A DNA stretch of 64,000 bases from contig JAZNPB010000140.1 of assembly GCA_045589435.1 (NCBI GenBank), positions 1,428 to 65,427 of the forward strand, in the 5' to 3' direction. Source of the stretch: Eubacteriales bacterium. Lineage in GTDB: Bacteria > Bacillota > Clostridia > Oscillospirales > CAG-272. Made by a program: the position numbers and the translations under genes. A model generated the notes under the pieces. The model had not been told where the DNA came from. It worked only from the letters and a program-made list of their open reading frames with translations, and made no database searches. This document shows positions 1-48,677 of this stretch, in pieces. The first letter of the stretch is position 1; every line of letters starts with the position of its first letter.

Positions 1-2
1 TG

Positions 3-1292
3 GTTTATGCTCTTGACAGATTTGGAAGAAACTCTGTTGAGATAGCATTGAACAAACAAAGGCTATCCAAAAACAAAATCATACTTATTTCGGCAACGCA
101 GAGAACTTCGGTCAATATTGACGGAAGTAAAAACCTTGACGGTATTCTTCTTGAAAACGTGCTTATATGTCTTTCTGAATACTACTCTGTCGAGCTTGCA
201 CAGAAGGTAAGAAGAGGTCAGAGGGAGAGCCGTCGCAAAGGCAACTTTCTTGGTGGCAGACCACCTTACGGATATAGGGTTGAAAACAAGAAAATCCTGA
301 TACATGAGGAGAGAGCTGAGGTTGTAAGGTTAATATTTGACCTATACGTATCCGGAAAATGTGTGCGAGAGATCCTTGAGGAGCTTAATAAACGAGGCAT
401 TCTCTATAACGGCAAACCGATATACCAAAGCACCTTATTTAAGATTTTGAAGCTTGAAAAATACACCGGTGTTTACAGATATGACGGTGAGGTTTACACG
501 GATATGTACCCTCAAATAGTAGATACGGCGGTATTTCAGCGAGTGCAACGAATGATGGATAAAAACAAGCACGGATCCAGCAGTCGAAATACCGATTTTC
601 TGTTGAAAGGAAAGCTTTACTGTGGTAGATGCGGTATGAAGATCAACGGCGACAGCGGAACGGCAAAAAACGGTGAAATGAAATTCTACTACACCTGCTC
701 TAACAAAAAGCGTTTCCGAGGTTGCAGCAAAACGAGTCTAAAGAAGGAGGCACTTGAAAAATGTGTGATAGATGCAACACTTAAGCTTCTGAACACCCCA
801 GAAAAAATATCCAGGCTTGCAGACGAGGTTGTTAATCTTAACGAACAGATATCTAAGGAACAAAGCATTCTTAATTTGCTTATTAGCGAAAGGGCTAAAA
901 TTCAAAAGTCACTTGATAACGTTATGATAGCGATTGAAGAAGGCATAATCACCTCAACCACTAAGGCGAGGATGACCGAGCTTGAAAATTCGCTTGCAGA
1001 AATCAATATGAAGATTGCTGCCGAAGAAAGTAAGCTTGACAGGACACTAAAAAAAGAAGACGTAGAAAAGTTTATAATTGAGGCTCTTGCATCCGAGCCG
1101 AAGGCGATGATTGAACTTTTGATTGACAAGATAATTCTCTATGAGGATAGGATAGAAATATTCTATGTATATGGCAATAATACTGATCCCGATGAACCCA
1201 ATTTGGAAGTTCATCGGGACTTCTTTTTATCTAATCAAAAAATAAAAATAACCCAAAGGGGCTTTGAAGCTACCTTTGAGCTAAAAATATAA
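3..1292 (+). CDS. large serine recombinase/integrase, N-terminus cut by window edge
   Basis: The frame is open from nt 3 (VYALDRFGRN = catalytic-Arg motif of the resolvase domain), so the ORF-track start at 48 is an edge artefact. Downstream are a recombinase domain, a Cys-rich zinc ribbon (CGRCG...YYTCSNKKRFRGCS) and a long coiled-coil tail. Confidence 0.85.
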   Translation, partial: VYALDRFGRNSVEIALNKQRLSKNKIILISATQRTSVNIDGSKNLDGILLENVLICLSEYYSVELAQKVRRGQRESRRKGNFLGGRPPYGYRVENKKILIHEERAEVVRLIFDLYVSGKCVREILEELNKRGILYNGKPIYQSTLFKILKLEKYTGVYRYDGEVYTDMYPQIVDTAVFQRVQRMMDKNKHGSSSRNTDFLLKGKLYCGRCGMKINGDSGTAKNGEMKFYYTCSNKKRFRGCSKTSLKKEALEKCVIDATLKLLNTPEKISRLADEVVNLNEQISKEQSILNLLISERAKIQKSLDNVMIAIEEGIITSTTKARMTELENSLAEINMKIAAEESKLDRTLKKEDVEKFIIEALASEPKAMIELLIDKIILYEDRIEIFYVYGNNTDPDEPNLEVHRDFFLSNQKIKITQRGFEATFELKI

Positions 1293-1308
1293 AAAGTCAT
1301 CAATCATA

Positions 1309-1477
1309 GTACGGGAATTTGCTCCGTCTGACGAGCTTCCCACAGGGAAGGGCGGAGCAATGTTTCGAACCCAATTCGCGCAAGCTAAAAAAAGCAAAAC
1401 AAGAAGATCAAAGCTATGAATTGCATAATTTGCAAAGCGCGAGTATGTTCGATTCCTTCGCACGAGTCACCACAATA
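1309..1477 (-). repeat. tRNA-Glu-derived structured element, copy L (inverted tRNA 3'-third plus split T-arm)
   Basis: 1447-1472 is an inverted, slightly diverged copy of the last 26 nt of the adjacent tRNA-Glu. There is a perfect 12-bp inverted repeat at 1466-1477 / 1511-1522 that includes 5 nt of flank. On the minus strand 1373->1309 reads TGGGTTCGA-AACA-[nested hairpin 1360->1319]-ATTCCCGTAC, i.e. a T-arm with a hairpin inserted in the T-loop. Confidence 0.5.
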
Positions 1478-1515: not shown

Positions 1516-1590
1516 TGGTGACCCGTACGGGAATCGAACCCATGTTTTCAGCGTGAGAGGCTGATGTCTTAACCGCTTGACCAACGGGCC
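1516..1590 (-). tRNA. tRNA-Glu (anticodon CUC)
   Basis: The reverse complement reads GGCCCGTTGGTCAAGCGGTTAAGACATCAGCCTCTCACGCTGAAAACATGGGTTCGATTCCCGTACGGGTCACCA. Cloverleaf with anticodon loop CT-CTC-AC and encoded CCA. Near-identical backbone to the tRNA-Glu at 48098. Confidence 0.9.
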
Positions 1591-1609
1591 GTCGTTTGGT
1601 TGCTAGGAT

Positions 1610-1638
1610 ATTATACTACAAATTGCGGAAAATGTCAA
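1610..1638 (-). promoter_or_regulatory. sigma-70 type promoter for tRNA-Glu(CUC)
   Basis: Minus strand: TTGACA, 17 nt spacer, TATAAT. It shares the extended context AAACCTATTGACATTTT...TATAATATCCTAGC with the promoter at 47956. Confidence 0.6.
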
Positions 1639-1777
1639 TAGGTTTCGAAAAAGTTTTTTAAGTTTTTTTCGTGACCTGAAAATACAGTGAATATATTAAC
1701 TGTATCCGCAAAGAAAACGTAAAAATTGTGATGCTTTTCGCTTTTTGTTATGCACCACCCGATGAGGGTGGTGCTGT

Positions 1778-2258: not shown

Positions 2259-4055
2259 TTACTTTGCATTTTGTGGCATTTGATATTGATCATAAACACT
2301 ATTTGGATACTGACTTCTGTGGATTTTTGCATAGAGCCCGTTTTGATTTATCAGCTCGGCATGGCTTCCCTGCTCTACTATATGACCGTTATCAACTACC
2401 AAAATCACGTCTGCATTTTCGATGGTGGACAGCCTATGAGCTATTACAAAGGCAGTGCGTCCTGCCATCAGCTCGTCCATGGTTTTCTGAATAATCAGCT
2501 CCGTTCTAGTGTCAACGTTGCTAGTTGCCTCGTCAAGAATGAGTATTGGGCGGTTTGAAAGGTAGGCGCGCGCTATCGTTAAGAGCTGCTTTTGACCTGC
2601 GCTGATATTTGTGCTATCTTCGTTTATTTCAGTGTCGTAACCCTTTGGCAGAGCGTTGATGAAGAGATCGATGTGAGCTTGTTTCGCTGCCTCCATCACC
2701 TCATCTCTCGTTGCATTCTCCTTGCCGTATGCTACGTTATCATAAACGGTGCCGGAAAACAGCATCGTATCCTGAAGCACCATGCCGAAAATGCCGCGAA
2801 CCTCTGAGCGATCCATTTTGCAGATATCCTTTCCGTCAACCAGGATCCGCCCCTCATTGGGATCGTAGAATCGCATGAGTAAGTTAACAATAGTGGTTTT
2901 TCCACCACCCGTGGGGCCGACTATTGCAACCTTTTGCCCCGGCTCTATTGTAAGATTCAAATTTTCTATCAGTGGAGTGTCCTCTTTGTATGAAAAGCTG
3001 ACGTTTTCGAAAACCACCCTTCCCACAACGCCACCGCTTTCAGTTTCGTGGGACTCCACCATTTCCTCGCTGTCGAGATACTCATAAACGCGCTTGGCAG
3101 AGGCAATGGTGGACTGGATCATCGACATTCCGTTTGCAATAGATTCAAGGGGACCCGCAAAGAGCTTTGTATACATAATGAACGCCACCATATCACCCAC
3201 CTCTACCTTATCAGTACTGATTACAAGATAAGCTCCTATAATACAGATAGCAACGTAGGAGAAATTATTTATGAGTGCCACGATCGGTCCTACTATGCCC
3301 GACGTGAAGAAACCACGCTCTGAAAGTTTGGCATATTTTTCAGTTATCTTCTTATATTTTTCGTTTTGCGTGTCCTCTGATGCAAAGGTTTTTACAACGT
3401 CAAATCCCGTAAGATTCTCCTCGCAAAGAGAATACATTTTTCCTGATGCCTCGCGGGATTTTTCGAAGTGTTTTTCGCTTCTTGAGGCTAAAATGGCAGA
3501 AATGATCATGGATATAGGTACGAAAATTATCACTGCAAATGCCATATCCGAATTTGCCTTAAAGATGATGATCACGATCATCAGAAGCCTGATAACACCG
3601 TTGATAATTACCCCGAAAATATCATGAACCGAGCCACCCATTACGGAAACGTCGTGAGTCATACGGGAGATAAACTCTCCGTTTGGCGTGGTATCTACGG
3701 ATTTTACAGGAATTTTTGCTATTTTTTCGCTCATGAGAACTCTTATTCTGCAAGTGAAGAAGCTTGTTACCGAATAATTCATAATCGCAGTTGTGAGCGC
3801 ACTGAAAAGGGTTGAAAGCAGATATACCACTGCGAGCAACAAGATCCCGTTCATAAAAGCAGAGCTATCAATGGCAGTGCCGTCATTCAAGAGATTATAG
3901 ATGCTGTTTGTCAGCTCGCCGAGTATCTCCGGTGCTTTCATAGCTGTGTAGGCAGAGCCTATGCTGAGGGCGGTTGCCAAGGCGAGAAAATGGGCTATTG
4001 GAAGTGAATCCTTAACGATTCTGCCGAGAACCTTAAATGAGGATTTATTCTTCAT
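2259..4055 (-). CDS. ABC transporter permease/ATP-binding protein (type I exporter half-transporter)
   Basis: N-terminal 6-TM domain. Walker A GPTGGGKTT, signature SAGQKQLLTIARA, Walker B ILILDEATS. Start moved to ATG 4055 (MKNKSS), which follows GGAGGTG; it overlaps the upstream stop by 11 nt. Confidence 0.9.
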   Translation of the reverse strand: MKNKSSFKVLGRIVKDSLPIAHFLALATALSIGSAYTAMKAPEILGELTNSIYNLLNDGTAIDSSAFMNGILLLAVVYLLSTLFSALTTAIMNYSVTSFFTCRIRVLMSEKIAKIPVKSVDTTPNGEFISRMTHDVSVMGGSVHDIFGVIINGVIRLLMIVIIIFKANSDMAFAVIIFVPISMIISAILASRSEKHFEKSREASGKMYSLCEENLTGFDVVKTFASEDTQNEKYKKITEKYAKLSERGFFTSGIVGPIVALINNFSYVAICIIGAYLVISTDKVEVGDMVAFIMYTKLFAGPLESIANGMSMIQSTIASAKRVYEYLDSEEMVESHETESGGVVGRVVFENVSFSYKEDTPLIENLNLTIEPGQKVAIVGPTGGGKTTIVNLLMRFYDPNEGRILVDGKDICKMDRSEVRGIFGMVLQDTMLFSGTVYDNVAYGKENATRDEVMEAAKQAHIDLFINALPKGYDTEINEDSTNISAGQKQLLTIARAYLSNRPILILDEATSNVDTRTELIIQKTMDELMAGRTAFVIAHRLSTIENADVILVVDNGHIVEQGSHAELINQNGLYAKIHRSQYPNSVYDQYQMPQNAK

Positions 4056-5787
4056 CGCTATCACCTCCCAGCATTTCTTTACCAAGCTGCGACTCTGCAA
4101 TTTCGCGATAAAGTGAGCATGACCTCATAAGTCCGTCGTGAGATCCTTCGGCAATTATTTTGCCTCCGTCCATTACGTAAATACGCTCTGCACTCATGGC
4201 AGTACTTATCCTCTGGGTGATGATCAATTGACTTTTACCACGTAGTATTCTACCGTAATTTTTTCTGATCTCGCTTTCGGTTAAAAAGTCGAGAGCACTG
4301 AAACTATCGTCGAATATGTAAATATTTGTTTGCTTAATAACCGCTCTTGCCATGTTGATTCTTTGTCTTTGTCCACCACTAATATTTTGTCCCATACCGA
4401 CAAGCAAGTAATCAAGCCCCTCTTTATGAGAGTCCACAAAATCGGACATCTTGGATAAGCGGAGAGCCTCGTAGATCTCCTCATCGGTAGCATCCGGCTT
4501 ACCCATCTTTACGTTATCGCGAACACTTCCCTCGAAAATTATCGCCTTTTGCTGCGCTGTGGAAAAGTTTGATCTTATCACAGATTTTGACAGATCGGCA
4601 TAGTCTGCACCACCGAGAGTTATGCTACCGCTATCTGCTTCAAATAGTCCTAAGAGCAACTTTGCAAATGTGGTTTTTCCACTTCCCGTGCCACCGATAA
4701 TAGCAACGCGCTCCCCCTCTTTGATTTCAAGCGAAAGATCTCGCAAGGAGGGCTCCGAGGCGCCGGGGTAGGAAAACGTCAGACCGTCAACGCGCAGATG
4801 AAATCCCTCAGGTACTCCGAGTTTATCACCGGGAGCTTCCTCGTTTTCAAGGCTGTGTATCTCGTTAATTCTTCTTATAGAAACCTTGAGTCGTGGCAGC
4901 CATGCAAGTGTCCACGAGAGGTTGATAAGAGCGTTTGAGATGAGAGCGACGTACTGCAAAACGGCAATAACGTCACCTGCGCCTATTCCTGCTCCCCCCT
5001 CTGCTCTCATCTTGCCAAAATACACCACCGCAACGGTCGCCATATTCAGAAGAAACATAGCGAAAGGATCAACCATTCCGCCTCTGATATTGGCTCTTAT
5101 CATGTATTTTGACATTTCCTCAGTAGCAAACTTTGCTCTCCCATGTTCGTGAGCCTCTTTGTTAAATGCACGAACGACACGGAGTCCGGAAAGCCTCTCT
5201 CTGACAACTTTATTTTGCATATCCACGTATTTATCCGACTTATCCCACATTTCATATAAAGGGCGCATAATGATAAGCACCAAAATAATCACGGGTGGGA
5301 TGGATAGCAAAAACACCAAGGACAGCACTCCGTCTGCCATGAAGGAAAGCACTGCCGATCCAATAAACATGAGAGGAACTGTGACGAAAGTATAAGGTAA
5401 GCTCGTGACAGCACCCTCTACGTTCCACACGTCATCCGTAGCCCTTGTGAGAAGTCCTGACGGGCCGATTTTTGAATAGTCGGAGTAGGAGAGCGAGTTA
5501 ATTTTCTCAAAGGTTTTTTGAAAGAGATTTGAGGTATAGCTTGCAGTAATGTGAGTGTTCAGCTTTGCAGATATTACGTTTACCAAGGTCGATATAACAG
5601 CCAAGCAAAGCATTACTATACCGTATTGCCATACAACTTTCATATTTCTTGCAGCTACACCGCGCTCTACGATCTCGCTCATAACGTAGGGAATAAACAG
5701 CGCGGTGATCATTCCCAATGCATCAAGCAATAGAACTGCGATCAGCTGCTTTTTGTAAGGTTTTAATAATTCTAATAGTTTTTTCAT
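4045..5787 (-). CDS. ABC transporter permease/ATP-binding protein (partner half-transporter)
   Basis: TM domain plus Walker A GGTGSGKTT, signature SGGQRQRINMARA, Walker B IYIFDDSFSALD. Translationally coupled to the downstream half, as in heterodimeric exporters. Confidence 0.9.
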   Translation of the reverse strand: MKKLLELLKPYKKQLIAVLLLDALGMITALFIPYVMSEIVERGVAARNMKVVWQYGIVMLCLAVISTLVNVISAKLNTHITASYTSNLFQKTFEKINSLSYSDYSKIGPSGLLTRATDDVWNVEGAVTSLPYTFVTVPLMFIGSAVLSFMADGVLSLVFLLSIPPVIILVLIIMRPLYEMWDKSDKYVDMQNKVVRERLSGLRVVRAFNKEAHEHGRAKFATEEMSKYMIRANIRGGMVDPFAMFLLNMATVAVVYFGKMRAEGGAGIGAGDVIAVLQYVALISNALINLSWTLAWLPRLKVSIRRINEIHSLENEEAPGDKLGVPEGFHLRVDGLTFSYPGASEPSLRDLSLEIKEGERVAIIGGTGSGKTTFAKLLLGLFEADSGSITLGGADYADLSKSVIRSNFSTAQQKAIIFEGSVRDNVKMGKPDATDEEIYEALRLSKMSDFVDSHKEGLDYLLVGMGQNISGGQRQRINMARAVIKQTNIYIFDDSFSALDFLTESEIRKNYGRILRGKSQLIITQRISTAMSAERIYVMDGGKIIAEGSHDGLMRSCSLYREIAESQLGKEMLGGDSDEE

Positions 5788-44230: not shown

Positions 44231-47200
44231 TCACCGTTTTATCTCAAGCGGCGTTTCATCTTGAGTTTCATAAAGTCTTGCCGCTATGGCAAACGCTATA
44301 ACGTAATAGAACGTGGTAAACACCTGGAAAACGTAATTGTCAAGAAGGCTCTCAACCGCCAGAACGGATGCGCCGAGAATCAGCATGAAACGATCAAGAC
44401 AGAACTTCTTAAACGCAAATCTGATAGTAGCAATACGGTAGAATCCGTAGCAAAGAGTACCAACAACGCCAGTCGCGGCAATAAGCTCGAAAATGGTATT
44501 GTGGGCGTATTCAGGGATATACTCTGCGGGAACAAACTGTGCAGAAACACGCATTCCAAAGAAGCCTGCTCCGAACACGGGATGTTCCTTGAATATCTCA
44601 ACGCATTCTTTCCATATGGTAGTTCTGCTGCTGCTTGATAATCCACGGTCAATATACTGCTTTACTACACCGTTAACGTTGGTGATAATAGAGCCCAATG
44701 CTCCTTCGGGTGCCTGGCCGGGATTGATATAATAGTAACCGAAGTATGCTACAAGCGCTATCACGATCGCTCCGATAATCATTCCAACTATTCTGCCGGC
44801 TCTCTTATTATTTCCGGCAAACATAGAGATAACAAGACAGATTATGAAGTACAGCGTACCCATGAGCATAGCGTTTCTCGAGGTAGTGGCACAACTGGCG
44901 ATCCAGAGAGCAAACGTCGTAACCAAGGAAAGGGCCGGCATCTTGCCTTTTATAAATCCGTAGAAGCTTACGGGTATCATGGTTGACACATGGAAACCAA
45001 CAAGCGTACAAACGCCGTATCCCATAGTCAGCGCATCACGATTCACATATCCGTTAACCAAAACACCATCAAAGATGTAAACCTTTGCAATTTGGATGAT
45101 GAGAATCCACGATGTTAATATAGTAATATAGATGAAGTAATCAACGAGTTTTTTAGGATCATCAAGCTTCAGACCCCAATAAATTATCACGTAAAGAACG
45201 AGATAAACCAGCATCATAAGCGCCGCCCACACAAGGTTCATAATCTTGTATTCGGGGTTAAATGCACCGTTAAGGAACATACCAACGGCAAAGACGCAGA
45301 GCGGAATTATCAGTGGTATCTTTGAAAGCTTTCCTCGGTAGAAGATCCTGTTTCTGAAGATGAATGCAATAAGTGCCACAAAGAGGATCACCATTGCAGC
45401 CATAAGAACGTAAGGACGAGGTCCTGTGTAGTAGTAATCAGATGGATATAGATGCTCCTTAGGAAGCTGATATGCAAAGGTGATAAGGAAAAACAGGAAG
45501 GGCTTTATCGTATTGGACTTGAACATCGCAAAGGAAACCAGGCAAACGTTCACGAATGCAAGGTACACCTCAAGTCCGGTAAGATTGCCTACAAGCACCA
45601 AAACAGCAACGATTATCGGATATATCCAACCGGTAAAGAAGTTCGACGTTGCCCTGCTCTTTTCCTGTGTGGTATCATAAATCTTTTTGTCGGCATCGCC
45701 ACCGGGTTTTGTACCAGGTTTTGTTTTTTTATCATCTTGGCGAGGCTTACGTTTTTTGATGATTACAGGTTCTTTTGTAAATGTAAGTTTGCATAATGCT
45801 GACTTATCAGCATATTTATCTACCTTTTCGAGTTTCGCGATCTTTTCATCATCAGGAACAAGTTTAAGATACTCGATAGGAACGAACTTGCTGATTCTCT
45901 TGTGATCAGCAAGATGAATTTCATCGTCGCGACTTCCTTTTCCACCCTTGATCTCATCTCTGTAAAGCAAAGCGGCTACAGCCACCAAAATGGTGTAGAA
46001 AACAGGGGAGAAAATCTGGAAATTGAAGTTATCCACAAGGCTGGAAACCATAACGTAAGACGCAGAAAGCATCAGCAAAAATCTATCCAGCGAGGCGCGT
46101 CTAAACGCCACAACAAAGGTTGAAATTCTGTAAATTGAGTAGCTGATAAAGCCTACGATACCCGTGGCTCCGAGAAGCTCAAAAACGGTATTATGCGCAA
46201 AATCAGGTATCAGATCCATGCCGAACTCTTTGTCAAACTGTGCAAATGAATTTGGCGTTGTAAGCTCGAGGGTGAAGAAGCCTTTTCCAAATATTGGGCT
46301 CTCAAGGAAGGCTTCAAACGCAGCTATCCAAAGAGTTTTTCTGCCGTTATTGCCCATTCCGCGCTGAATGTAAAGATCAATAATGGACATTAGCTGCTCG
46401 CGGAAGACGATAGCCAAAACGGCAACAATAGCAACGAATGCTATCAAGAGCTTTATCATCTGCTTTCCTCTCTGTCCGGAGACAATCGAGATAATGAAGC
46501 AAAGTATAAAGTAAAGGCCGCCAAATAGCATGGCGTTTCTCGAGGTAGTTGTCAGTGCTATTGCATAAACGCAAACGGCTGTAAAAATTGAGAGATACGG
46601 GCGCTTGCCCTTGATAAATCCGTGGAAGTTCGCGGGAATGAGCATAGCCACGTGCGCACCAACGATATTACAGCTACCGACACCGAGTACAATGAATTTA
46701 CGGTCGGAAACAGCGCCAAGAGTTGCCTCGCCGCTGATGAAAACGTACGCAACCTGAATTATCAGTACCCATGACATCAAAATTACAATGTGGTGTATGT
46801 AGTCTAGGAGATTTTTGCGGTTTTCTCTGCGCAAGCCAAGGTAGCAAAAAACGTAAATTATCAGGTAAACGAACACCTGACCAAGTCCCCAAAGCAAATC
46901 TTCAAGATCGTCGCCCTCAACCAAAAGTCCGTTAAGAAGCATCGCCACCGAGAATATCAAAAGCGGAATCAAAAGCGGTATCTCACGCCATGACACCTTA
47001 AAGAGCCTTGCTCTGAACACAAATATGACGAATGACAGAACAAGTATCGCCGCCGTTGCAATAAGAAGATATGGATTTATGCCCTCAAAATAATGCTTTG
47101 ACTCATAAGGCTTCATATACAGATGCCTGGGATTGAACTGCAGCATGAAGGTCATAATATAGAAAAGCATCGGCTTTATCGTCTTGGTTTTTACGATGGC

Positions 47201-47341
47201 AAATCCCACAAGAATGGCAGATGCGAGTATCGTATATACCTCAAATCCGCTGAAGAATCCAAAAATTATCAGCAAAAAATGCAGTACCGGATACCATTCT
47301 CCCAATAAGAATTTGTCAATCTTCTTTGACGTAGTTGACAT
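44231..47341 (-). CDS. fused tandem O-antigen ligase/polymerase-like (Wzy_C) membrane protein
   Basis: Two homologous polytopic halves of about 480 aa. Each has TTSRNAML, (F)GKGFF/GAGFF and AHNT(V/I)FEL motifs. They are joined by a basic soluble linker. Start at ATG 47341 after AAGGAGA. Confidence 0.75.
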   Translation of the reverse strand: MSTTSKKIDKFLLGEWYPVLHFLLIIFGFFSGFEVYTILASAILVGFAIVKTKTIKPMLFYIMTFMLQFNPRHLYMKPYESKHYFEGINPYLLIATAAILVLSFVIFVFRARLFKVSWREIPLLIPLLIFSVAMLLNGLLVEGDDLEDLLWGLGQVFVYLIIYVFCYLGLRRENRKNLLDYIHHIVILMSWVLIIQVAYVFISGEATLGAVSDRKFIVLGVGSCNIVGAHVAMLIPANFHGFIKGKRPYLSIFTAVCVYAIALTTTSRNAMLFGGLYFILCFIISIVSGQRGKQMIKLLIAFVAIVAVLAIVFREQLMSIIDLYIQRGMGNNGRKTLWIAAFEAFLESPIFGKGFFTLELTTPNSFAQFDKEFGMDLIPDFAHNTVFELLGATGIVGFISYSIYRISTFVVAFRRASLDRFLLMLSASYVMVSSLVDNFNFQIFSPVFYTILVAVAALLYRDEIKGGKGSRDDEIHLADHKRISKFVPIEYLKLVPDDEKIAKLEKVDKYADKSALCKLTFTKEPVIIKKRKPRQDDKKTKPGTKPGGDADKKIYDTTQEKSRATSNFFTGWIYPIIVAVLVLVGNLTGLEVYLAFVNVCLVSFAMFKSNTIKPFLFFLITFAYQLPKEHLYPSDYYYTGPRPYVLMAAMVILFVALIAFIFRNRIFYRGKLSKIPLIIPLCVFAVGMFLNGAFNPEYKIMNLVWAALMMLVYLVLYVIIYWGLKLDDPKKLVDYFIYITILTSWILIIQIAKVYIFDGVLVNGYVNRDALTMGYGVCTLVGFHVSTMIPVSFYGFIKGKMPALSLVTTFALWIASCATTSRNAMLMGTLYFIICLVISMFAGNNKRAGRIVGMIIGAIVIALVAYFGYYYINPGQAPEGALGSIITNVNGVVKQYIDRGLSSSSRTTIWKECVEIFKEHPVFGAGFFGMRVSAQFVPAEYIPEYAHNTIFELIAATGVVGTLCYGFYRIATIRFAFKKFCLDRFMLILGASVLAVESLLDNYVFQVFTTFYYVIAFAIAARLYETQDETPLEIKR

Positions 47342-47394
47342 TTGCGGCTCTCCTTTATAAAACGAAAATTCAAGAAAAAACAATTAGATATTTT

Positions 47395-47423
47395 ATTATA
47401 CAATATAAAGAGTTTTTTGTCAA
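47395..47423 (-). promoter_or_regulatory. sigma-70 type promoter
   Basis: Minus strand: TTGACA, 17 nt spacer, TATAAT. Confidence 0.6.
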
Positions 47424-47955
47424 TATTAATGCGGCTAAAAAATATTAAATAATATTAATTTTTTTGCGCAAAGCTACTAAAAACACTTAAAAACCGAGCG
47501 ACATCAAAGTGCCCTATGCGTGAACTTTTCTAACACAGGCTCTTACGATAATCGCCAGCAAACTCCGCTTTTTCCTTCACATTTGATAATATAAGTTTAC
47601 ATTTATATGTATTTCGAGCCAAAAAGCAACGTAATCCAAAAACATTTATTTAGAATGTGTATTGATTATCACAAAAAAACCGAGAGTATAATCCAAACCC
47701 ACAACCAGTATTAACAGCCATTTTTTACAACCTGATATTTCCCATAAAACCACTGATTAAAAAGTGCTTTTTCGCAGCAGGCAGTCATGTACTTAAAAGC
47801 TACTTTAATCAACCATTATGTCAAGTGAAAAGGGAAATCCGCTTGCATATTTAATCCAAAAAAAGTAAAAACCGAAATCACCACATGGAGAGAAACCGAT
47901 AACAAAAGCATTTTCAAATAATGACAAAAAAATTGAAAAACTTTTAAAAAACCTA

Positions 47956-47984
47956 TTGACATTTTGTTTTAGGTGTGATATAAT
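47956..47984 (+). promoter_or_regulatory. sigma-70 type promoter of the tRNA-Met/tRNA-Glu operon
   Basis: TTGACA, 17 nt spacer, TATAAT. Extended identity with the promoter at 1610-1638. Confidence 0.65.
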
Positions 47985-48015
47985 ATCCTAGCGTTGGAAT
48001 TCCAGCGAAGTTTGT

Positions 48016-48092
48016 GGCGGATTAGCTCAGCTGGCTAGAGCGCCCGGTTCATACCCGGTAGGTCGTTGGTTCAAATCCGACATCCGCTACCA
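48016..48092 (+). tRNA. tRNA-Met (anticodon CAU; elongator-type backbone)
   Basis: GGCGGATTAGCTCAGCTGGCTAGAGCG...TTCATAC...GGTTCAAATCC...CGCTACCA. A lysidine-modified tRNA-Ile2 cannot be formally excluded. Confidence 0.85.
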
Positions 48093-48097
48093 CAAGC

Positions 48098-48172
48098 GGC
48101 CCGTTGGTCAAGCGGTTAAGACACGGCCCTTTCACGGCTGTAACATGGGTTCGATTCCCGTACGGGTCACCA
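48098..48172 (+). tRNA. tRNA-Glu (anticodon UUC)
   Basis: GGCCCGTTGGTCAAGCGGTTAAGACACGGCCCTTTCACGGCTGTAACATGGGTTCGATTCCCGTACGGGTCACCA. Confidence 0.9.
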
Positions 48173-48175
48173 AAA

Positions 48176-48216
48176 ACAACCTAATCCTATTCCGGATTGG
48201 GTTGTTTTTCTTTTTT
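48176..48216 (+). terminator. intrinsic terminator of the tRNA operon
   Basis: 12-bp stem ACAACCTAATCC/GGATTGGGTTGT, 6-nt loop, then TTTTTCTTTTTT. Confidence 0.7.
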
Positions 48217-48347
48217 GGGTGACCTGTACGAGGAATCTCACACAGCGACGTATGTCGCATGGGTTCGCATACCCCACCCGAAGATCTGAAAGCTCGCTTT
48301 CAAGGCGTAGGGTGTGGGTATATTCATCTTTGATGAAATTCCCGTAC
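48216..48347 (+). repeat. tRNA-Glu-derived structured element, copy A
   Basis: 48216-48240 is an inverted, diverged tRNA-Glu 3'-third (TGGGTGACCTGTACGAGGAATCTCAC). GGGTTCG follows at 48261, then a nested hairpin (48269-48321), a small hairpin, and ATTCCCGTAC (48338-48347). Confidence 0.55.
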
Positions 48348-48384
48348 ATTCTATTAAAACTAATAAATAGTTAACGTCGCAAAA

Positions 48385-48589
48385 CTCGGATTGGGTGGTG
48401 CTTTTCTTTCCTTTGGTGATCCGTCGGGATCGACCCACCCTGAAAATTGCAAATTTTTCAGGATATGGGTATTGCCGCTCGGAGATTGGCAAGCTTGTTT
48501 GCCAGGCGGAGAGCGAGCAAATATTCACCCTCGGCGAAATTCCTGTGTCGGAAGTTTTATAGGGTGAGCAAATTCTCGTACGGTTCACA
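48385..48589 (+). repeat. tRNA-Glu-derived structured element, copy B (includes a copy of the terminator 3' arm)
   Basis: 48385-48437 aligns with 48193-48240 (CGGATTGGGT.GT..TTTTC.. + TGGTGATCCGTCGGGATCGACCCA). GGGTA follows at 48467, then a nested hairpin (48472-48520), a second hairpin, and AATTCTCGTACGGTTCACA (48571-48589). Confidence 0.55.
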
Positions 48590-48677
48590 CGCCTTGGTGC
48601 TACATAGTTGACTTTTGAGTTTGATTATAGTATAATTAACTTACCAAAAATCCAGAATTTACGGAGGAGTAAACAAA

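Follow-up and report, generated by a model that had tools for sequence, protein, structure and literature searches.

The tRNA-Glu(UUC) operon and two tandem units behind its terminator

The 64-kb stretch of DNA analyzed here, referred to as the window, contains genes for tRNA-Met(CAU) (48016-48092, + strand) and tRNA-Glu(UUC) (48098-48172, +). A consensus sigma-70 promoter for this operon lies on the same strand at 47956..47984 (TTGACA, a 17 nt spacer and TATAAT, with TG) and is the sole promoter-like site 5' of the elements described below, inside which no promoter was found when we looked for one. The last 26-30 nt of tRNA-Glu(UUC), GGGTTCGATTCCCGTACGGGTCACCA, here called X, include the 10-nt palindrome CCCGTACGGG and are the source sequence of both the inverted and the direct copies found downstream. 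The operon is closed by an intrinsic terminator at 48172..48216 (+) with a 16-bp stem and a T-run (hairpin and T-run lie within 48172-48209), the hairpin being G+C-rich. This terminator is the centre of a longer palindrome, the arms of which are the tRNA 3' end and an inverted copy of it, I_A. Further downstream are a glyoxalase gene, which has its own promoter and is located 3' of the units, and rhamnose genes; an exact look-up of the glyoxalase protein of the window returned no record.

The segment at 48176-48589 carries two tandem, diverged copies, A and B, of a tRNA-tail unit of about 180-200 nt. A preliminary description of this DNA had proposed two tandem elements derived from the tRNA-Glu 3' end directly after tRNA-Glu(UUC), and this was confirmed by shuffle tests. 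In local alignment with the reverse complement of the last 30 nt of the tRNA, I_A (48216..48241, +, TGGGTGACCTGTACGAGGAATCTCAC) scored 28, against 13.3 ± 2.0 for shuffled sequences (0 of 2000 reached its score), while the direct counterpart, a diverged version of the tRNA 3' end (ATTCTCGTACGGTTCACA, 48572-48589, +), scored 24, against 13.7 ± 2.0 (1 of 2000).

The layout given for copy A, i.e., inverted tRNA 3' end, hairpin and split T-arm, was likewise recovered at 48216-48347. I_A is followed by a small variable hairpin, h1_A (48245..48258, +, GCGAC GTAT GTCGC), and by core A (48259..48347, +), which scores 111.8 bits with our family model R1. Core A starts with a copy of the T-stem (P1, ATGGG/CCCGT; GGGTTCG at 48261-48267, +), has TTCGC as J12, and continues with a nested hairpin, P2 (48269-48321, +), composed of an outer stem (48269-48279/48310-48321), the internal loops GAAGATC/AGGCGTA and an inner stem (48287-48292/48297-48302) with loop CTCG. 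A further hairpin, P3 (48323-48337, +), and J31 (ATT) follow, and the core ends in the direct T-arm piece ATTCCCGTAC (48338-48347, +). The insert had been described as a two-stem hairpin; the nested hairpin is present, but the module has three hairpin elements (P2 outer, P2 inner and P3).

Unit B starts at a 78% copy of part of the operon terminator (3' arm and T-run, 48387..48409, +), which is also the boundary of the tandem duplication. It continues with a second inverted tRNA 3' end, I_B (48414..48437, +, TGGTGATCCGTCGGGATCGACCCA), of a sequence type that also occurs in related loci L031, L032 and L038, with hairpin h1_B (48439..48462, +, CCTGAAAA...TTTTTCAGG), of a type common to L001, L031 and L032, and with core B (48462..48551, +; 72.9 bits with R1), in which the P2/P3 layout of A is built from other stem sequences. 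The claim that B repeats the architecture of A stands for the terminator copy and the layout, with two corrections: the TTCGC of J12, part of the T-loop, is deleted at 48468/48469, and 48546..48589 (+) holds the 3' half of another, single-hairpin (L-type) core (GTCGGAAG...GGTGAGCAA) with the direct copy ATTCTCGTACGGTTCACA behind it, a stretch homologous to L053 and L064. A and B are about 75% identical, and the inserted hairpins indeed differ in sequence while keeping the same layout, with stems swapped for other complementary sequences and loops retained. Folding of the segment compared to shuffled sequences gave z = -5.8 for the + strand and z = -6.3 for the - strand.

A third unit beside a serine-recombinase element

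The copy L that the preliminary description had named also exists. The gene for tRNA-Glu(CUC) (1516-1590, -) is followed by its terminator and then by unit L (1306..1476, -). In this unit an inverted copy (1476-1447) is followed by a long hairpin (1442-1375), then by GGGTTCGAAAC and one covarying hairpin, with ATTCCCGTAC at 1318-1309. A large serine recombinase gene (1..1292, +), which extends beyond the start of the window, converges on L, with its stop codon 16 nt from the ATTCCCGTAC of the unit. The gene belongs to a small integrated element, the ortholog of which in L038 also encodes a rolling-circle Rep protein; element genes are also present at unit locus L027. Relatives of this element integrate into the 3' end of tRNA-Glu and supply a replacement 3' end and terminator. 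Unit L is located between the terminator of the element and the recombinase gene and is followed by a degenerate second T-run. Comparing L070, which has no unit, to L of the window and L038 placed the boundaries directly after the T-run and at CCCGTA(C/T). Furthermore, a 'tail' that recurs in many arrays resembles the 3' end of a recombinase gene.

These observations support part of the earlier suggestion that the copies are stacked attachment-site scars. The tRNA-derived flanks and the tandem arrangement fit such scars, as do the integrated element at tRNA-Glu(CUC), its relatives that target the same tRNA end, and the recombinase-like tail. The inserted junction module does not fit, because it shows compensatory changes and invariant loops and shares no sequence with the available element interiors. 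In blastn comparisons with these interiors, the units had only the tRNA and terminator in common. Related recombinase elements at tRNA-Glu occur without a unit, no element genes adjoin A and B, and most arrays likewise have no neighboring element genes. The far end of the recombinase/Rep element, sought in order to learn if units form its other att junction, was not found: 0.2-1.5 kb upstream of the recombinase gene the contigs all end, save for a longer one (L077) in which no copy of the tRNA end was seen, and no direct repeat was seen for a relative of the element at tRNA-Ala.

Distribution and arrangement of the units

A search with model R1 gave 57 copies, spread over 39 of the 42 sequence sources that were covered. 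The copies originate from a genome scan, a metagenome scan (21 loci) and contigs of relatives; the genome scan yielded 19 real matches against about 5 chance matches, as expected. About 40 further loci, from rumen and gut Clostridia (Ruminococcus, Acutalibacteraceae), carry the unit. At 21 loci it follows a tRNA gene and is always on the tRNA strand, and at two sites that have no tRNA it has the orientation of the upstream gene. The tRNA is mostly tRNA-Glu but can also be tRNA-Val(GAC) or a Ser-like tRNA, so that the proposed link to tRNA-Glu holds for most loci and is too narrow for the family. Where the unit follows another tRNA type, its flanks match the local tRNA.

The order of parts is terminator, inverted tRNA 3' end, variable hairpin and T-arm copy with inserted module, and the core starts 78-141 nt past the tRNA end (17 loci measured). 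Units in arrays are usually each followed by an intact-looking terminator, the sequences of which are unrelated (four in L040), although L033 and L036 contain units without a terminator of their own. The 'pristine' units of L066 and L032 end in a full ATTCCCGTACG(A/G)GTCACCA and a second terminator, whereas many others, window copy A among them, lack an acceptor 3' strand, ending at CCCGTAC. Agreement with the tRNA sequence repeatedly stops at CCCGTA|C, in the middle of the palindrome CCCGTACGGG. Many loci have a degenerate inverted copy, and an inverted copy is absent at a control tRNA (Thr, L062) that does have a terminator. Truncated pieces give several arrays a mosaic makeup (window B, L040 and L038), and many copies lie at contig ends.

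Copies are clustered, with 2-5 per locus, and nearly all clusters adjoin tRNA genes. No R1 matches were found outside clusters in the 64 kb window and about 270 kb of related loci, and motif searches of the window returned only A and B plus one chance match with 3 mismatches. The idea that the units are a MITE or satellite, also raised in the preliminary description, was not supported, since there are no dispersed matches and the copies within a genome are old and diverged. It is hardly credible that they represent a dispersed MITE- or REP-like repeat or, as another option, a small protein-coding ORF (48238-48588, minus strand, 116 aa). Palindromic units in alternating orientation do resemble BIME architecture, and mechanically called ORFs do overlap the region. 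However, the clusters are nearly all tRNA-linked, and the inverted copy and 3' copy form inverted repeats with a 9 nt offset at which no target-site duplication was seen; the ORF matches no Pfam family and its substitutions are pairwise-compensatory rather than codon-like.

Conserved structure of the core

The insert is a module of about 70 nt with two hairpins, P2 and P3, placed in the T-loop between G57 and A58. Together with the T-stem copy it forms a three-way junction of about 90 bases, with a folded shape that is kept in many uncultured Clostridia of gut and rumen; when the inverted copy acts as closing strand, a cloverleaf-like four-way junction results. P2 has two conserved internal loops and a CUYG tetraloop. 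Loops and junctions (GGTTCGCAT, GAAGATC, AGCTYGCT, AGGCG, ATATTC and GAAATTCC) are nearly invariant, whereas the stems vary.

That structure is more conserved than sequence had been proposed from two copies and is now strongly supported by 57. In a first set of 21 sequences, 16 of the 28 pairs changed on both sides and 95% of cells were paired, compared to 30-53% when the 3' partners were slid. The covariation that had been sought among copies was also found in all 57 sequences: 18 of the 28 pairs changed on both sides (232 cells), and 91% of cells were paired against 28-52% after sliding, a value reached by none of 500 shuffles. RNAalifold independently recovered the same core helices.

Which strand is folded is suggested by several features. 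Only the tRNA-sense strand has the G-closed CUYG tetraloop, 25 G.U pairs were counted against 13 A.C pairs (excluding the T-stem U.G pair and a misaligned variant), and with R1 the reverse strand scores only about 17 bits. This is modest evidence for an RNA of tRNA sense. Whole units fold into a long hairpin and a four-way junction (74-80% paired bases, z between about -9 and -11). In 13 of 17 minimum free energy folds the inverted copy is the partner of the 5' side of the T-stem copy, and in 2 of 17 this side pairs with the 3' side of the T-stem copy.

Because of the cloverleaf-like four-way junction, and because in some units a terminal ...TCACCA precedes a terminator, we considered a tRNA-like gene or pseudogene, producing a tRNA-shaped RNA that ends in CCA and is processed like tRNA. 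Its acceptor-like stem would consist of the inverted copy and the 3' copy, and its T-arm would carry the insert. Such a gene is very unlikely. ARAGORN and the Rfam tRNA model (RF00005) reported only the three genuine tRNAs in the window and did not detect the units, here or in related loci. The acceptor pairing itself was rejected for L031 and L045, in which the upstream tRNA end differs from the downstream tail and the inverted copy matches the upstream tRNA, not the 3' tail of the unit, and the many units that stop at CCCGTAC have no acceptor 3' strand to pair with.

The covariation also bears on whether the units are neutral debris, i.e., stacked integration remnants combined with fold-back and tandem duplications of the tRNA 3' end, in which hairpin complementarity is maintained by template-switch ('quasi-palindrome') correction and gene conversion instead of selection. 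Three observations agree with debris: the first palindrome is continuous, spanning the tRNA 3' end, the terminator and the inverted copy, the arrays are mosaics that include truncated parts, and the tail module is similar to a recombinase gene at its 3' end. Templated correction, however, does not hold unpaired loops invariant across many genomes. The core is also better conserved than neighboring intergenic DNA (95.6% identity over 91 nt between window and L001, compared to 76% for adjacent promoter DNA), and its 87-nt length and layout are kept in over 50 copies even though terminators and h1 were wholly replaced. The tRNA-Thr control, with a terminator and no inverted copy, also argues against debris, which we regard as rather improbable.

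Comparison with known elements

At gathering score, Rfam 15 returned only tRNAs and, at a distant position in L050, one unrelated group II intron fragment; with E<=10, 48210-48600 gave only spurious miRNA-type hairpin matches. Units had no blastn match in phages and plasmids, pattern scans of viral contigs did not find them, and a literature search found no earlier description.

Candidate classes were examined individually. A T-box leader was rejected since there is no Rfam T-box match and the glyoxalase gene is served by a separate promoter past the units. GTACGGTTC resembles the 3' strand of group II intron domain V, yet the region has no Rfam intron match, and hammerhead and other small ribozymes were excluded by unfit junction sequences and absent Rfam matches (both by inspection). 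A K-turn in the internal loop of P2 is suggested by CCC-GAA-GA, which fits the bulged strand, but the opposite strand does not have the conserved G at position 2n. Inspection also dismissed an IS200/IS605-type miniature element, since P2 is unlike P3 and a TnpA/TnpB gene is absent, and guides of the bridge-RNA or omega-RNA type, since no cognate recombinase or nuclease gene is adjacent.

The attL/attR repeats of integrated elements are similar to the units in that direct partial copies of a tRNA 3' end lie downstream of the intact tRNA gene (ATTCCCGTAC and ATTCTCGTACGGTTCACA here, full-length in L066 and L032), an integrase, here the large serine recombinase, occurs at the same tRNA end in the window and in relatives, and the element supplies a replacement 3' end and terminator. 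Unlike such repeats, the units contain an additional inverted copy, most arrays are not adjacent to element genes, and the family is conserved across many genomes; the sequence between the repeats does not show neutral decay but is a covarying, conserved 70-nt T-loop insert. In the tyrT-type tandem repeats of E. coli, repeat units after the tRNA gene each start with a tRNA 3' end. They share the tandem tRNA 3' copies with our units, and unequal crossing-over has been invoked for both, but they differ in sequence and clade, and terminators, inverted copies and a structured junction module are features of our units.

3'ETS RNAs, ROOL and GOLLD are also located just after tRNA genes and have conserved structure, and by analogy the units may share with 3'ETS-type RNAs an origin in the tRNA transcript. 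The units match none of these RNAs by sequence or Rfam model and are much smaller than ROOL or GOLLD, and they differ from all three in being placed behind a terminator and built on copies of the tRNA's own T-arm. Alternating palindromes separated by short motifs, in intergenic positions after genes, relate the units to BIME/REP arrays and REPIN doublets. REP palindromes are about 35 nt, of high copy number and associated with RAYT, whereas the unit is about 190 nt, of low copy number and tRNA-linked, with sequence-conserved loops; no RAYT-type transposase was found in the loci examined. Many dispersed copies per genome, as expected of a MITE, were likewise not seen. Finally, inverted target-like copies that can fold into a duplex target mimic, structure conserved above sequence, and strand specificity are shared with the CTX phage attP hairpin and integron attC sites. 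This likeness is one of folding potential, and the enzymes differ: attP and attC use tyrosine recombinases (XerCD and IntI), whereas those near the units are serine recombinases.

Proposed origin and mode of action

We tentatively favor, at somewhat less than even confidence, the view that the units are a new structured RNA domain in the read-through trailer of the tRNA operon, close to the read-through ncRNA pairing with the tRNA 3' end that the preliminary description had listed as a candidate. The core would be the functional part, present as a structured domain on the tRNA-sense strand. Since the units lie behind a strong terminator, they could only be transcribed by read-through: the strong tRNA promoter and passage of the first terminator would give a unit transcript, ending at the unit's own terminator where present, and this RNA would be the active form. 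The read-through RNA may then contain a pairing switch. The inverted copy could pair with the 3' end of the tRNA itself, which would give the hairpin of the terminator a long extension, or alternatively with the T-arm copy as a decoy, and the junction domain, alone or with a bound factor, might decide between these pairings. One outcome would be a correctly folded tRNA and a stable trailer RNA capped by a hairpin; the other would be a long duplex serving as a cleavage mark on the read-through transcript. Pairing of the inverted copy is not strictly maintained, given its degeneracy in many loci, and since copy B lacks part of the conserved junction and the core of L is reduced, not all copies can be functional.

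The tRNA-derived flanks are, in part demonstrably, recombination products formed at the tRNA 3' end as an attachment site. Small serine-recombinase elements use this end for integration, and unequal crossing-over or gene conversion among tRNA 3' copies would produce and remodel the tandem arrays and keep the copies in line with the local tRNA. Copying by gene conversion or templated palindrome correction can suffice to explain flanks that track the local tRNA, with no selection on pairing.

Hairpin covariation would fit a folded single-stranded DNA site equally well, and a module that acts as DNA is a possible, though less likely, explanation. The unit would then be a non-autonomous integrative mini-element or an attachment-site cassette, with a circular form containing, in order, the tRNA 3' remainder, terminator, inverted copy, hairpin, 5' part of the T-arm, insert and ATTCCCGTA. 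Campbell-style integration at the tRNA 3' end could be carried out by co-resident serine recombinases or rolling-circle machinery, with ATTCCCGTA|CGGGTCACCA as putative unit-borne recombination sites, possibly on folded single-stranded DNA, where pairing of the inverted with the direct copy would rebuild a duplex target. The ends of L066 and L032 are exactly the product expected from a Campbell event or unequal crossover, tRNA matches repeatedly end at the centre of CCCGTACGGG, and elements with a serine recombinase and rolling-circle Rep integrate into the same tRNA end. The position of L between element terminator and recombinase gene, with a degenerate T-run behind it, also agrees with a mobile module, as do movement between tRNA types (Glu, Val and Ser-like) with flanks matching the new tRNA, the almost complete self-pairing of a circular unit, and the frequent location at contig ends. 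On the other hand, copies within a genome are few, and they are old and diverged (A and B being about 75% identical), so that recent movement is not seen, related recombinase elements at tRNA-Glu have no unit, no sequence is shared with available element interiors, and copies were not found in viral contigs. Furthermore, serine recombinases use plain duplex sites, and branching at 7 bp from the crossover would interfere with a half-site. RNA is also the more usual setting for invariant loops and a CUYG tetraloop.

More speculatively, and with little likelihood in our view, the unit could be a replicon-like or recombination-competent mini-circle of about 180-200 nt, of DNA or RNA, or its junction could be a sensor domain that governs tRNA maturation. 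The mini-circle would be a rod in which a duplex copy of the tRNA 3' end is closed by two hairpin caps, with the conserved junction as side branch, and it would enter and leave tRNA genes through the recombinases or rolling-circle proteins of co-resident elements. As a sensor, the junction would control maturation of the upstream tRNA by the choice between tRNA pairing and decoy pairing. If the mini-circle proposal is true, the unit would be close to the smallest integrative genetic element so far described for bacteria.

The family adds a well-supported structured element, which has no curated RNA family and no match in the phage, plasmid and viral collections searched, to the known conserved non-coding motifs; it comes from rumen and gut Oscillospirales, a clade known mostly through metagenome bins. 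Its construction is unusual in that a tRNA fragment carries a functional-looking junction within its T-loop, next to an antisense copy of the tRNA 3' end. Should the trailer RNA proposed above be correct, the units would represent a novel kind of trailer element in tRNA operons and could offer a way to study the fate of read-through tRNA transcripts; should they act as DNA, they would show how very small sequences can hitch onto the tRNA attachment sites of serine-recombinase elements. For annotation, there is a risk that units pass for tRNA pseudogenes or prophage scars. They also cause assembly breaks and mark synteny break points: between the window and its closest relatives, synteny breaks exactly inside a unit.

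Units downstream of the two tRNA-Glu genes

Copies A and B follow the tRNA-Met(CAU) and tRNA-Glu(UUC) genes (48016-48092 and 48098-48172), a pair with a perfect sigma-70 promoter upstream and a strong intrinsic terminator downstream. The layout that the preliminary description gave for copy A was found in full at 48216-48347: past the terminator T-run, the tRNA 3' end recurs as an inverted, degenerate copy (48216-48241), and after it come a small hairpin (48245-48258), GGGTTCG, a hairpin with nested stems, another small hairpin and ATTCCCGTAC (48338-48347). The claimed matches to the tRNA 3' end stood out from shuffles of the region, with a score of 28 for the inverted copy (shuffles 13.3 ± 2.0; 0/2000 reached 28) and 24 for the best direct copy (13.7 ± 2.0; 1/2000 reached 24). 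Copy B indeed starts with a copy (78%) of the terminator 3' arm and T-run; A and B align at about 75% identity, with loops kept and stems swapped for other complementary sequences. Folding of these 428 nt gives z = -5.8 for the plus strand and -6.3 for the minus strand.

A third copy, L (1306-1476), follows tRNA-Glu(CUC) (1516-1590, minus strand). The two tRNA-Glu loci are paralogous, since their promoters are homologous (1600-1680, minus strand, and 47930-47990, plus strand; aaaaaactt...cctattgacatttt...tataatatcctagc), and nearly all differences between the genes lie in the anticodon arm. One locus therefore duplicates the other, with an anticodon change.

Wherever the flank suffices, the order of the unit is constant: tRNA, terminator, inverted copy of the tRNA 3' end (I), a variable hairpin (h1), the T-stem 5' strand with TTCG, C followed by P2 (outer stem, 7x7 internal loops GAAGAUC/AGGCGYA, inner stem, CUYG loop with G-C closing pair), P3, and AUU with the T-stem 3' strand and GUA(C). 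Units often continue into the remainder of the tRNA 3' end, or into a diverged tail whose last bases are GGCTCACCA, and then a further terminator. The insert separates T-loop position 57 from position 58. Besides the canonical core there is a second type with GCAGAGCGCG...AAGCGGCAAG and a reduced type with one hairpin; this last type, too, shows covariation between loci, and window copy L and the last part of B belong to it. Pristine units at two related loci (L066, L032) close with the complete 3' end of the tRNA plus a second terminator, the expected product of Campbell-type insertion or unequal crossing-over.

Distribution and covariation

Scanning one genome per species with a degenerate pattern yielded 24 loci. 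Of these, 19 are real, and every one belongs to a MAG classed as Eubacteriales, Clostridia, Ruminococcus or Acutalibacteraceae; the other five or so were chance matches in other phyla, equal to the expected number. A broader pattern added 21 loci from metagenomes. With the covariance model of the core (R1), 57 copies were found in these loci, and most of the loci are from fragmented MAGs; as loci were collected by searching for the core, the counts apply to core-bearing loci and not to tRNA-Glu genes at large. Over the 64-kb window and some 270 kb of DNA from related loci, R1 found nothing beyond the 57 copies, and a MITE, one of the readings first proposed, is judged less likely. Rfam, phage, plasmid and viral-contig searches gave no match and literature searches no description; the element is absent from every curated family and searched collection.

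The proposal that structure is more conserved than sequence was borne out. In a MAFFT alignment of 21 sequences, 16 of 28 pairs changed on both sides and 95% of cells are paired, against 30-53% with the partners slid. Among the 57 model-aligned copies the figures are 18 of 28 pairs (232 cells) and 91%, against 28-52%. No shuffle out of 500 matched the observed covariation in either alignment, RNAalifold independently recovered identical helices, and loop and junction nucleotides are nearly invariant. The strand evidence leans modestly to the tRNA-sense strand: the CUYG tetraloop with its G-C closing pair exists on that strand only, G.U exceeds A.C by 25 to 13 when the count leaves out the U.G inherited with the T-stem and one misaligned variant, and R1 reaches only about 17 bits on the reverse strand.

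Linkage to the local tRNA

A tRNA lies upstream on the same strand in 21 loci, and the core starts 78-141 nt past the tRNA end (17 loci measured). Most are tRNA-Glu(UUC) or tRNA-Glu(CUC); L050 and L065 have tRNA-Val(GAC), L060 a Ser-like tRNA, and L054 a Glu-like body with anticodon CAC. This last gene (L054:8021-8095, minus strand), near-identical in body to tRNA-Glu(CUC) and followed by three units, is labeled Val by ARAGORN because of its anticodon and may reflect either a shift of anticodon or an assembly variant.

The 5' part of I extends the terminator palindrome into the local tRNA 3' end and matches local variants (L025, L040, L045, L050, L065), and through its 3' part the h1 helix reaches into the T-stem copy. 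Local T-stem variants also recur in this copy: GGGG/CCCC (L025, L063), GCGG/CCGC (L059) and CTGG/CCAG (L065). No inverted copy accompanies a control tRNA-Thr that has a terminator. Tracking and helix continuity thus make two alternative closings of the junction possible. As modeled, the T-stem copy may pair with itself (P1), or both its strands may pair with I in a cloverleaf-like four-way junction, which MFE folds favor in 13 of 17 units. A tRNA-like gene is a less likely reading of the unit.

Judging from sequence, we tentatively favor the core as a structured RNA domain within the read-through trailer of the tRNA operon, because the unit is always on the tRNA strand and near the tRNA end, has no promoter of its own, usually has intact terminators in arrays, and carries a tetraloop of RNA type. 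The tRNA's own 3' end and its decoy copy might then be alternatives in a pairing switch.

Mobile-element context

A large serine recombinase gene, of which the window has the 3' four-fifths (1-1292, plus strand), is convergent with the L unit, its stop codon 16 nt from the unit's ATTCCCGTAC. In the orthologous contig L038 the gene is complete, with Resolvase, Recombinase and zinc-ribbon domains, and a rolling-circle Rep (PF23343) lies upstream. Together with an ORF of about 60 aa, Rep and the 500-aa recombinase make up a small integrative element (window 1-1292; L038:17-2345; L069-L076). Other genomes have homologous elements with these three genes, at least 3 kb in total, at the 3' ends of their tRNA-Glu(UUC) and tRNA-Glu(CUC) genes; in L078 a relative lies at tRNA-Ala. 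Identity between element sequences extends into the 3' half of the tRNA that they share; integration therefore occurs within the tRNA end, and the replacement end and terminator come from the element. The far junction was not recovered, contigs almost always breaking 0.2-1.5 kb upstream of the recombinase gene.

These homologous elements of other genomes carry no unit, and units have no sequence in common with the element interiors available. Compared with them, the unit in window L and L038 is an extra block between element terminator and recombinase stop, bounded directly past the T-run and by CCCGTA(C/T) at the center of the tRNA palindrome CCCGTACGGG. In tRNA-Glu(UUC) this perfect 10-nt palindrome (48158-48167) spans the 3' strand of the T-stem and the first bases of the acceptor's 3' strand. 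Unit matches to the tRNA repeatedly stop at its center, between CCCGTA and C, a candidate crossover point for serine recombinases.

Flanks and tandem layout are best explained by recombination at the attachment site, then unequal crossing-over and gene conversion, and the stacked att-site scars of the preliminary description are supported for these parts. The inserted junction cannot be a passive scar, because its length, layout and loop sequence stay conserved over dozens of genomes in which h1 and the terminators have been wholly exchanged. It is also more conserved than adjoining intergenic DNA, and neutral debris is a less likely account of it. The main rival to the RNA domain, a DNA-level module that would recombine, perhaps as a folded strand, at the end of the tRNA, seems rather unlikely to us; as a circle, the unit is 74-80% self-paired, which speaks for it.

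The glyoxalase gene downstream of the units places the organism as a Ruminococcus-like Clostridia MAG. In its closest relatives (L001-L009) no tRNA precedes this gene, and an AraC-type gene is found there. These genomes still carry one core copy, 95.6% identical to core A; promoter DNA adjoining the core is only 76% identical to that of the window. At the synteny break (window 47383-48016 versus L001:1-1500), the relatives' AraC-family gene stands against the window's Wzy_C-domain gene (44231-47383, minus strand) and tRNA-Met/tRNA-Glu operon, and the break point falls inside the unit, between h1 and core. With the core retained and the upstream genes different, the window is therefore rearranged relative to these genomes, with the break within the unit.

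L038 also has a second serine-recombinase ORF (3234-4493, minus strand) upstream of the array. With no stop codon before the array, it continues through the tail module, a terminator hairpin, an inverted copy and part of a core; this suggests a recombinase whose 3' end spans the attachment site and alters upon integration. Between two units of this array lies a small membrane-protein gene (L038:2633-2959, minus strand; DUF3784, weak match) with its own promoter. In another related contig, an ArdA antirestriction gene and two serine-recombinase genes (L027:4295-7921, minus strand) form the end of a conjugative element; 1.2 kb away is a unit array that has no tRNA and follows a metK gene. A group II intron D1-D4 fragment (L050:10033-10092, minus strand; Rfam RF01998, 49 bits), about 2.3 kb from the tRNA-Val-linked units, is probably unrelated to them.
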